This document shows positions 50,968-52,282 of a stretch of DNA of 64,000 nt, piece by piece. The stretch is from NCBI GenBank assembly GCA_965198065.1, contig CBDAON010000004.1, forward strand, positions 1,568,001 to 1,632,000, given 5' to 3'. The notes beneath the pieces were generated by a model. That model did not search any database and was not told the DNA's origin. It saw only the letters and a program-made list of their open reading frames with translations. The stretch comes from Longimicrobiales bacterium (lineage in GTDB: Bacteria > Gemmatimonadota > Gemmatimonadetes > Longimicrobiales > Gaopeijiaceae). The position numbers and the translations under genes are program-made. Every line of letters starts with the position of its first letter. Position 1 is the stretch's first letter.

Positions 50968-52282
50968 GTGAGCCGGCCCCTCGATCTCGACGATCTGACG
51001 CCGCGCCAGGTGCGCGCCTTCCGGCGCTCCATCCTCCGCTTCTACGACGAGCGCGGGCGCGATCTGCCGTGGCGGGAGACCCAAGATCCGTATGCGATCC
51101 TCGTCTCGGAGGTGATGCTCCAACAGACGCGCGTCGAGACGGTGGTTCCGTACTACGAGAAGTGGATCGCGCGCTTCCCCAGCATCGGCGCACTGGCCGA
51201 AGCGGAGACGGACGAGGTGCTCAAGCTCTGGGAGGGGTTAGGGTACTACGCGCGTGCGCGGAACCTCCGTTACGAGCAGACTTGATGTTCGTCCAATAGT
51301 CGGGTACTACGCGCGTGCGCGGAACCTCCACCGAGCCGTGCGAGAGATCGAGGCCCGCTACGACGGCTGGATCCCCGGGGACCCTGACGAGCTCCGGGGC
51401 CTCCCGGGGATCGGCGCGTACACGGCTGGGGCGGTGGCCTCGATCGCGTTCGACGTGCCGGTCCCCGCGGTGGACGGGAACGTGCGTCGCGTCCTCGCCC
51501 GGTTGGCCGACGACCCGGCGCCTCCCCTGGCCCGGCTCGAACGCTGGGCGTCACGCCTCGTGGATCCGGACCGGCCCGGTGCGTTCAACCAGGATCTGAT
51601 GGAGCTTGGGTCGACGTTGTGCACGGCCCGCGCCCCCGTGTGTGGCAGCTGCCCGGCCGGCAGGTGGTGCCGAGCGCGCCAGTCGGGCACCGTCGAGATG
51701 CGGCCGCGTCGGAACCCCAAGCGCGGCGTCCCCACTCTGACAGAAGCCGTCGTGATCCTCGTCGACCTAGCTGACGGGGACTGGAGGATTCTGCTGAGGA
51801 AGCGACCGGAGCAAGGGCTCCTGGCCGGGCTGTGGGAGTTCCCGGGCCGACCCGTGGGGTCGAGGCGGAGCGCACGGGCCGAGGCGCTGACCTGGCGTGG
51901 GAGCTGGTGGGGGCGGAGCGGGGGCCGAAGAACGGAGTCTGGTCTGCGCCCGATGCCGGGGACGCGGTGGCCGGTCTGCTCTTCGGTCGCGAGGCCGTCG
52001 CGCTACCCCCTCTCGAACACGCCTTCTCTCATCGGCGAGTGCGGTATTTGCCGTTCCTTAGTCTCGGTGGATGGGGCTTGCCGCGACGAGGGGCCCGAGA
52101 GTGGTATGCCGAGAACCGGAGGGGGCGAGAGTGGGTCGGGGTCTGGACGACCGGTGGGGGGAGCGCCTCGGTGGATCCACCGAGGCGAGGAATCGGATCT
52201 CGCACTTCCCTCGGCTCAGCGAGAGCTACTCCGGCGTGCCTGGGACCAGCTTTCGGAGCTCGCCCGTAGAAGACGGACGTGA
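50968..52282 (+). pseudogene. mutY: A/G-specific adenine glycosylase disrupted by a 61-bp insertion and further frameshifts
   Basis: RDLPWR, VSEVMLQQT, GLGYYARARNL, LPGIGAYTA, VDGNVRRV, CxxxxxxCxxCxxxxxC, GLLAGLWEFP, HAFSH. Confidence 0.92.
51241..51329 (+). CRISPR. Single repeat-spacer-repeat unit (28+33+28 bp) inside mutY; candidate off-target type I-E spacer integration
   Basis: Exact repeats GGGTACTACGCGCGTGCGCGGAACCTCC at 51241-68 and 51302-29; insert GTTACGAGCAGACTTGATGTTCGTCCAATAGTC (15/33 GC); no cas genes in window. Confidence 0.6.

Follow-up and report, generated by a model that had tools for sequence, protein, structure and literature searches.

A spacer-like 28+33 insertion in mutY and two further scars point to natural off-target type I-E CRISPR integration in a Longimicrobiales bacterium

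In type I-E adaptation, as set out in the accessible portion of PMC10011333, the acquired unit is a protospacer of 33 bp that starts with the PAM-derived G of AAG, gap filling copies the repeat, and Cas1-Cas2 alone integrates outside the array in vitro too. Off-target integration is known mainly from Cas1-Cas2-overproducing Escherichia coli and from purified proteins. The E. coli type I-E case, in which off-target integration yields a neo-CRISPR, was described by Nivala, Shipman and Church in 2018, a study known to us through texts that cite it (10.1101/148544, PMC7054753, PMC6698737). According to the parts of these texts available, its evidence from nature was circumstantial and concerned two other species (10.1101/148544), and off-target events are rare under Cas1-Cas2 overproduction (PMC7054753); the available part of PMC11394691 merely cites the 2018 work. 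For Pyrococcus furiosus and Thermotoga profunda, the sections at hand report that the sites chosen off target by Cas1-Cas2 in vitro share features of the repeat, and that the fidelity of integration depends on a DNA-bending host protein, which suppresses off-target choice (PMC6698737, PMC13769266).

The locus described here resembles the E. coli neo-CRISPR, so far as those partial sources describe it, in combining a spacer-sized insert outside an array with a target duplication of repeat length at a repeat-like site. Unlike that case, it belongs to a wild lineage without overexpression, is fixed across samples, has empty alleles in sister strains and involves two broken genes; moreover the cas operon appears to have been lost here, so that the scar would be unable to act as an array. 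It likewise shares with canonical adaptation at the leader-repeat junction (PMC10011333, as available) the G-first 33-bp unit and the 28-base duplication, and departs from it in having neither leader nor array and a target that is only 14-18/28 repeat-like, IHF guidance being evidently absent, as we infer. The P. furiosus and T. profunda cases differ in that they concern other CRISPR types, purified proteins and plasmid targets, and the available parts of the papers describe no natural gene knockouts. A natural off-target spacer in mutY was not found in the literature that we searched, and subscription papers or supplements may hold one. We consider that natural off-target integration by a type I-E Cas1-Cas2 accounts for the mutY insertion and for two further scars with a probability of about 0.85, and the claim that this genome is a new, well-controlled natural example with filled and empty alleles is well supported.

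The mutY insertion and its alleles

The window, a stretch of 64,000 nucleotides from assembly GCA_965198065.1, holds within mutY two exact 28-nt copies spaced 61 apart, and between them 33 nt that begin with G (Table 1). A sequence-only reading of this DNA had claimed that the insertion shifts and stops the reading frame and that removing 61 bp restores it. The letters at 51241-51329 agree with the claimed duplication and insert, and translation bears out the rest: the insert-bearing frame terminates after ...GYYARARNLRYEQT, and without the 61 bases it stays open through ...LGYYARARNLHRAVRE, the single-copy form of the target reading through as GLGYYARARNLHRAVRE. The 5' part is 74% identical to the MutY of the only same-genus genome, G001 (alignment A1), the closest MutY among named genomes being that of a Gemmatimonadota bin (63%), which makes this phylum the likely one for the organism; the middle part contains the helix-hairpin-helix, a cysteine cluster motif and the start of a NUDIX-like domain. 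At the second frameshift the same-genus MutY is continuous and fits the second frame (ALPPLEHAFSHRR segment). A perfect 12+12 palindrome lies at 52164-52187 of the window, near the 3' end of the gene. The low G+C content noted earlier stands as a number, 15/33 (45%) in flanks whose 100-nt bins range from 62 to 78%, and is not diagnostic because the array spacers of this genome range from 33 to 76% and the remaining inserts have 55% and 73%.

Table 1. Positions of the scars, the mutY segments and the CRISPR arrays (window coordinates where no contig is given; G000 is this genome, C its contigs, L a fetched locus)
Feature	Position	Strand	Remarks
28-bp target, first copy (mutY codons GYYARARNL plus one base)	51241..51268	+	exact duplicate; mimics type I-E repeat
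33-bp spacer-like insert, G first	51269..51301	+	single copy in genome
28-bp target, second copy	51302..51329	+	exact duplicate; empty allele of run X5 joins 51240 to 51302, 28 letters shared
mutY 5' part, 105 codons, premature stop inside insert	50968..51285	+	TIGR01084 positions 2-93; HhH-GPD; putative GTG start
mutY middle part, out of frame with 5' part	51302..51890	+	TIGR01084 positions 78-262; HHH, HhH-GPD, NUDIX_4
mutY 3' end, another frame	51880..52269	+	second, independent frameshift near 51880-51895 (assembly sequence)
Second 28+33 scar, in clpB	G000:C4:740643-740731 (L001:5643-5731)		removing 61 bases reopens clpB frame
Third 28+33 scar, intergenic	G000:C4:1860217-1860305 (L002:6217-6305)		directly after stop codon of DUF4159 gene
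Array 1, truncated IS1595 transposase and cas5e fragment	G000:C4:1501851-1504320 (L003:9852-12321)		putative relic of a deleted I-E operon
Type I-E array 2	G000:C4:1749917-1750690 (L004)		no leader; begins directly after open frame
Type I-G array	G000:C1:1-3400 (L005)		contig start; graded, degenerating trailer; behind csb1 and csb2

The alleles were compared in contigs of four runs (X1, X2, X4 and X5), in which rare excised molecules are invisible. Contigs of three of the four, X1, X2 and X4, span the insert with 0 differences, and these represent two studies, X1 being possibly the source of the assembly, X2 belonging to another study and X4 to another sample. In run X5, which belongs to a third study, precisely the 61 bases are missing from mutY, and three other differences occur. 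The filled allele is thus derived, since X5 holds the empty allele and the mutY of G001 is unbroken, and it is common to a clonal lineage; the empty allele is carried by a sister strain that differs by about 0.4% here. This empty allele reads as ancestral rather than revertant, because its haplotype carries the three other differences. That an adapter, a barcode or a chimera produced the insertion in the assembly or the library could be entertained insofar as the evidence consists of contigs and X1 may be the assembly's own source. We regard it as scarcely credible and rule out an assembly artefact at mutY, given the identical filled allele in X2 and X4, and the three inserts of this genome differ from one another.

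Two further scars and their repeat-like targets

The 3.05-Mb assembly was scanned for exact duplications of at least 16 bases at spacings of 30-130. Spacing 61 yields the two arrays and exactly three isolated sites, in mutY, in clpB and in an intergenic region, all of which resolve to 28+33, and outside the arrays there are no such duplications at spacings 55-59, 62-63 and 65-70. The mutY duplication is therefore not a matter of chance, as spacing 61 has three isolated sites and the neighbouring spacings none. The two matches at spacing 60 are one tandem duplication and one glycine-rich repeat; tolerating degeneration (at least 22/28) added no older 61-period site in the genome. For clpB, among four runs, the empty allele occurs in X5 (with four other differences) and X6 (with five), X2 and X10 giving no cover; the filled state of both the clpB and the intergenic scar is known only from the assembly. 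As separate observations, perfect head-to-tail duplications of 60, 49 and 50 bp lie at G000:C4:297493, 624517 and 1706541; they could be slippage or long-read errors, and the 49-bp one may frameshift a gene. Contig C4 also carries a dispersed repeat family with many identical 28-nt matches (e.g., at 2688476, 2673561 and 2552043), likely an IS or MITE.

Apart from the first G, the three inserts have nothing in common at their ends; they lack terminal inverted repeats and have no counterpart elsewhere in the genome. One could envisage that mobile elements duplicated 28 bases at each site and later left 33 bases behind in a genome that is indeed rich in multi-copy DNA, with 1,736 self-matches of at least 400 bp vs 20 in the part read of G116, a relative with an intact I-E locus, and with IS1595, IS3-type and Mutator transposases. 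Insertion sequences duplicate about 2-14 bp of their target, far less than 28, and an insertion-sequence footprint was rejected for want of inverted repeats or shared ends. The mobile-element explanation is further opposed by inserts that are unrelated and unique, by a constant 28+33 that is the unit of the arrays, and by targets that mimic the I-E repeat in register, so that we hold it to be very improbable.

The resemblance of the targets to the repeat can be put in numbers. Compared with the genome's two I-E repeats, the mutY target matches 16 and 15 of 28 positions, the clpB target 18 and 14, and the intergenic target 14 and 15; moving the register by one base, two sites having two possible registers, gives 5-12/28 vs 14-18/28. 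The earlier claim of a 17/28 match between the mutY 28-mer and the E. coli-type repeat holds, and a repeat with the quoted letters occurs in locus L264. An independent matrix was also derived from the I-E repeats of other organisms' loci, 16 distinct sequences of which one (L256) is out of register. By this matrix the fraction of positions on both strands that score as high is 3.9e-4 for mutY, 2.5e-3 for clpB and 7.8e-4 for the intergenic site (7.8e-3, 8.8e-3 and 4.9e-2 in the opposite orientations), and the combined p for the three targets is about 4e-6 with orientation and register allowed for. In the best-scoring orientation all three inserts (3/3) begin with G, which is weak evidence by itself. 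Nine positions are common to the three targets and both genome repeats (G1, C9, G10, G16, C17, G18, G20, G21 and C27). The flanks of the sites do not have the AAGA/AAGT ending typical of most of the I-E leaders compared, and the events were therefore leaderless.

The targets are GC-rich imperfect palindromes whose DNA hairpins range from -2.1 to -6.9 kcal/mol. This property, together with the plain tandem duplications of 49-60 bp present in the genome, would suit break repair or template switching in which 28 local bases are copied around a captured fragment and no CRISPR enzyme takes part. Such repair would not be expected to give the identical geometry at three sites, empty neighbouring spacings and in-register mimicry of the repeat, and we consider it improbable. 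Off-target type I-E integration, the core of the earlier reading, gains strength from the additional scars in clpB and between genes, from the empty alleles, from the two I-E arrays and from the cas5e relic. In mutY, Cas1-Cas2 would have docked on the CG-rich imperfect palindrome within the GYYARARNL codons; a prespacer of 33 bp would then have been joined by both its 3' ends, at points 28 bases apart on opposite strands, and gap filling would have copied the 28 bases as at a genuine first repeat.

A donor for the inserts did not emerge from the sequences searched. None of the three has an exact match in viral contigs, the mutY insert has none in metagenome contigs, blastn against phages and plasmids gave chance-level hits (best E 0.3-4), and the 313 family genomes gave chance-level hits too, including one 19-nt match (E 0.005). 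The comparison of the 33-mer with phage, plasmid and virome sequences that the earlier reading had called for thus gave no counterpart in that material. The possibility that the 33-mer copies nearby host DNA could be set aside, no second copy of any insert occurring in the genome itself or in the fetched loci.

Type I-E arrays and the candidate integrase

Both type I-E arrays have a 61-bp period, and their two repeats differ. Array 1 comprises 24 identical repeats of 29 nt ending in G, and 23/23 of its spacers measure 32 nt; under the convention that counts this repeat-terminal G as the first spacer base (PMC10011333, available portion), that is, as 28+33, all 23 spacers are G-first. Array 2 has a 28-nt repeat with 9/9 spacers of 33 nt whose first bases vary. 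In array 2 two spacers are duplicated in tandem and the end is cut off by an IS3-like fragment; its orientation flips where two 5' repeat halves join through the palindrome centre, as if the array had been inverted through the palindrome of the repeat itself.

The sequence-only reading had called for a type I-E cas1/cas2 locus in this genome. Neither gene, nor an I-E cas7, was found in the assembly, which is 87.6% complete in 4 contigs; what is present are the arrays and a cas5e fragment of about 100 codons at C4:1503979-1504320 (TIGR01868 casD_Cas5e, E 8e-17). When I-E operon proteins from four family genomes and six metagenome loci were used as queries, this fragment was the only I-E relic, and of the six related I-E operons only Cas5 has a match in the genome. 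Some 700 bp separate the fragment from the leader end of array 1, a gap occupied by a truncated IS1595 transposase that runs up to the first repeat. This arrangement points to an I-E operon that once stood beside array 1, where a deletion would have removed cas6e, cas1, cas2 and the leader. If the operon and leader were indeed deleted beside the IS1595 fragment, the mutY scar would be an inert one-spacer relic. The scars were also rejected as functional CRISPR arrays, with one spacer per site, no leader-like flank and no I-E effector beyond the cas5e fragment. NYN, TPR and SIR2-STAND genes near array 1 suggest a defence island. A Cas3-like helicase lies at C4:1487681-1488757, 13 kb from array 1 and far from the type I-G array. 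Of three matches to the HU/IHF family one is best as HU-beta and a 44-codon piece is best as IHF-beta, all being under cut-off; Rfam gave 0 matches in 6 sources.

The nearest relatives of the cas5e relic have mostly G-first I-E arrays, like array 1, and the G at the start of the inserts and of the array 1 spacers would suggest a system like that of E. coli, with an AAG PAM. The 61-base mutY insertion is best described as a scar of the 28+33 kind, recent and strain-specific, for which the type I-E integrase of the lineage itself is the likely maker, and we are less sure which I-E system acted than of the mechanism. A different type I-E Cas1-Cas2, whether belonging to the array 2 system, brought by a plasmid or phage, or encoded at a locus missing from the assembly, may have done the same work, an option that is contained in the overall probability given above and that we consider possible, though it falls well short of even odds. 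It draws on the presence of two different I-E repeats, on the 14-15/28 match of the sites to the array 2 repeat, on the incompleteness of the assembly, and on the rarity of I-E cas1, which exceeds the cut-off in 4/151 family genomes; the I-E system is patchy in the family because cas1 passes in those four genomes only. The three inserts begin with G as do the spacers of array 1, and the varying first bases in array 2 oppose this option. The type I-G array on C1 was rejected as the source of the scars, its period being 71-72 with a 36-37-nt repeat vs a scar period of 61; the assembly contains no cas1 for it, and isolated scars of 71-73 period were not found.

The relative with an intact I-E locus including cas1, G116, shows 0 such scars in the 2.47 of 2.86 Mb (86%) that were read; the contrast is only suggestive, as about 2.4 scars would be expected there at the rate of the present genome.

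Consequences for mutY, clpB and the lineage

The sequence-only reading had further proposed that the mutY motif is a recurrent hotspot, that the insertion creates a mutator and that excision could reverse it; none of the three ideas gained ground. As for the hotspot, 2,405 positions of the genome reach the score of the mutY site, and the 28-mers of 34/34 other mutY genes score lower (best 3.2e-3, median about 3e-2). The motif would thus be mildly repeat-like in general and the synonymous codons of this lineage would have made it a good target, a view that we draw from the lower scores of all 34 others. The full-length mutY cut-off is passed by 222/301 family genomes. Sixteen genomes below it, chosen mainly by the E-values expected of a split gene, were opened and showed contig ends, other frameshifts or only a paralogue, with the insert in none of them; an isolated 61-period duplication occurs in 0/148 fetched loci, and the 61-bp insertion is hence absent from the other mutY genes of the family genomes examined.

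Regarding the mutator, 122 private changes in multi-copy DNA comprise C>T 39, C>G 33, T>C 20, T>G 13, C>A 11 and T>A 6, so that C>A accounts for 11/122 with no enrichment of G:C-to-T:A, although this is a weak test with no control and many of the changes may predate the insertion. The reversal envisaged earlier is countered by the second frameshift downstream in mutY and by an empty allele that reads as ancestral, not revertant. Both broken genes are in fact dead twice over, mutY through its second frameshift and clpB through the in-frame absence of about residues 66-219. G001 has no full-type clpB match, only a ClpC-like one, and clpB therefore looks dispensable in the genus.

Drift within a clonal lineage rich in IS elements probably fixed the mutY scar. 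General gene decay was rejected as a strong reason for its retention, as only 1/263 orthologue-like genes is split (241 are whole and 21 partial). G001 (L128, L279), of about 1.6 Mb at 92% completeness, has an intact mutY and no Cas1, and the genus appears to include genomes at different stages of reduction. It is tempting to speculate that a spacer was the first to hit a working mutY and created a repair-deficient lineage, that clpB was hit too, and that the damage favoured the loss of the I-E operon, driving early genome reduction; we regard this scenario as rather doubtful. What the scars do suggest is that CRISPR, in writing its memory, can disrupt housekeeping genes, while the three targets indicate which repeat bases a natural integrase tolerates. 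The 28+33 signature offers, across genomes, a simple count of the off-target cost of adaptation, even after the loss of the cas genes.
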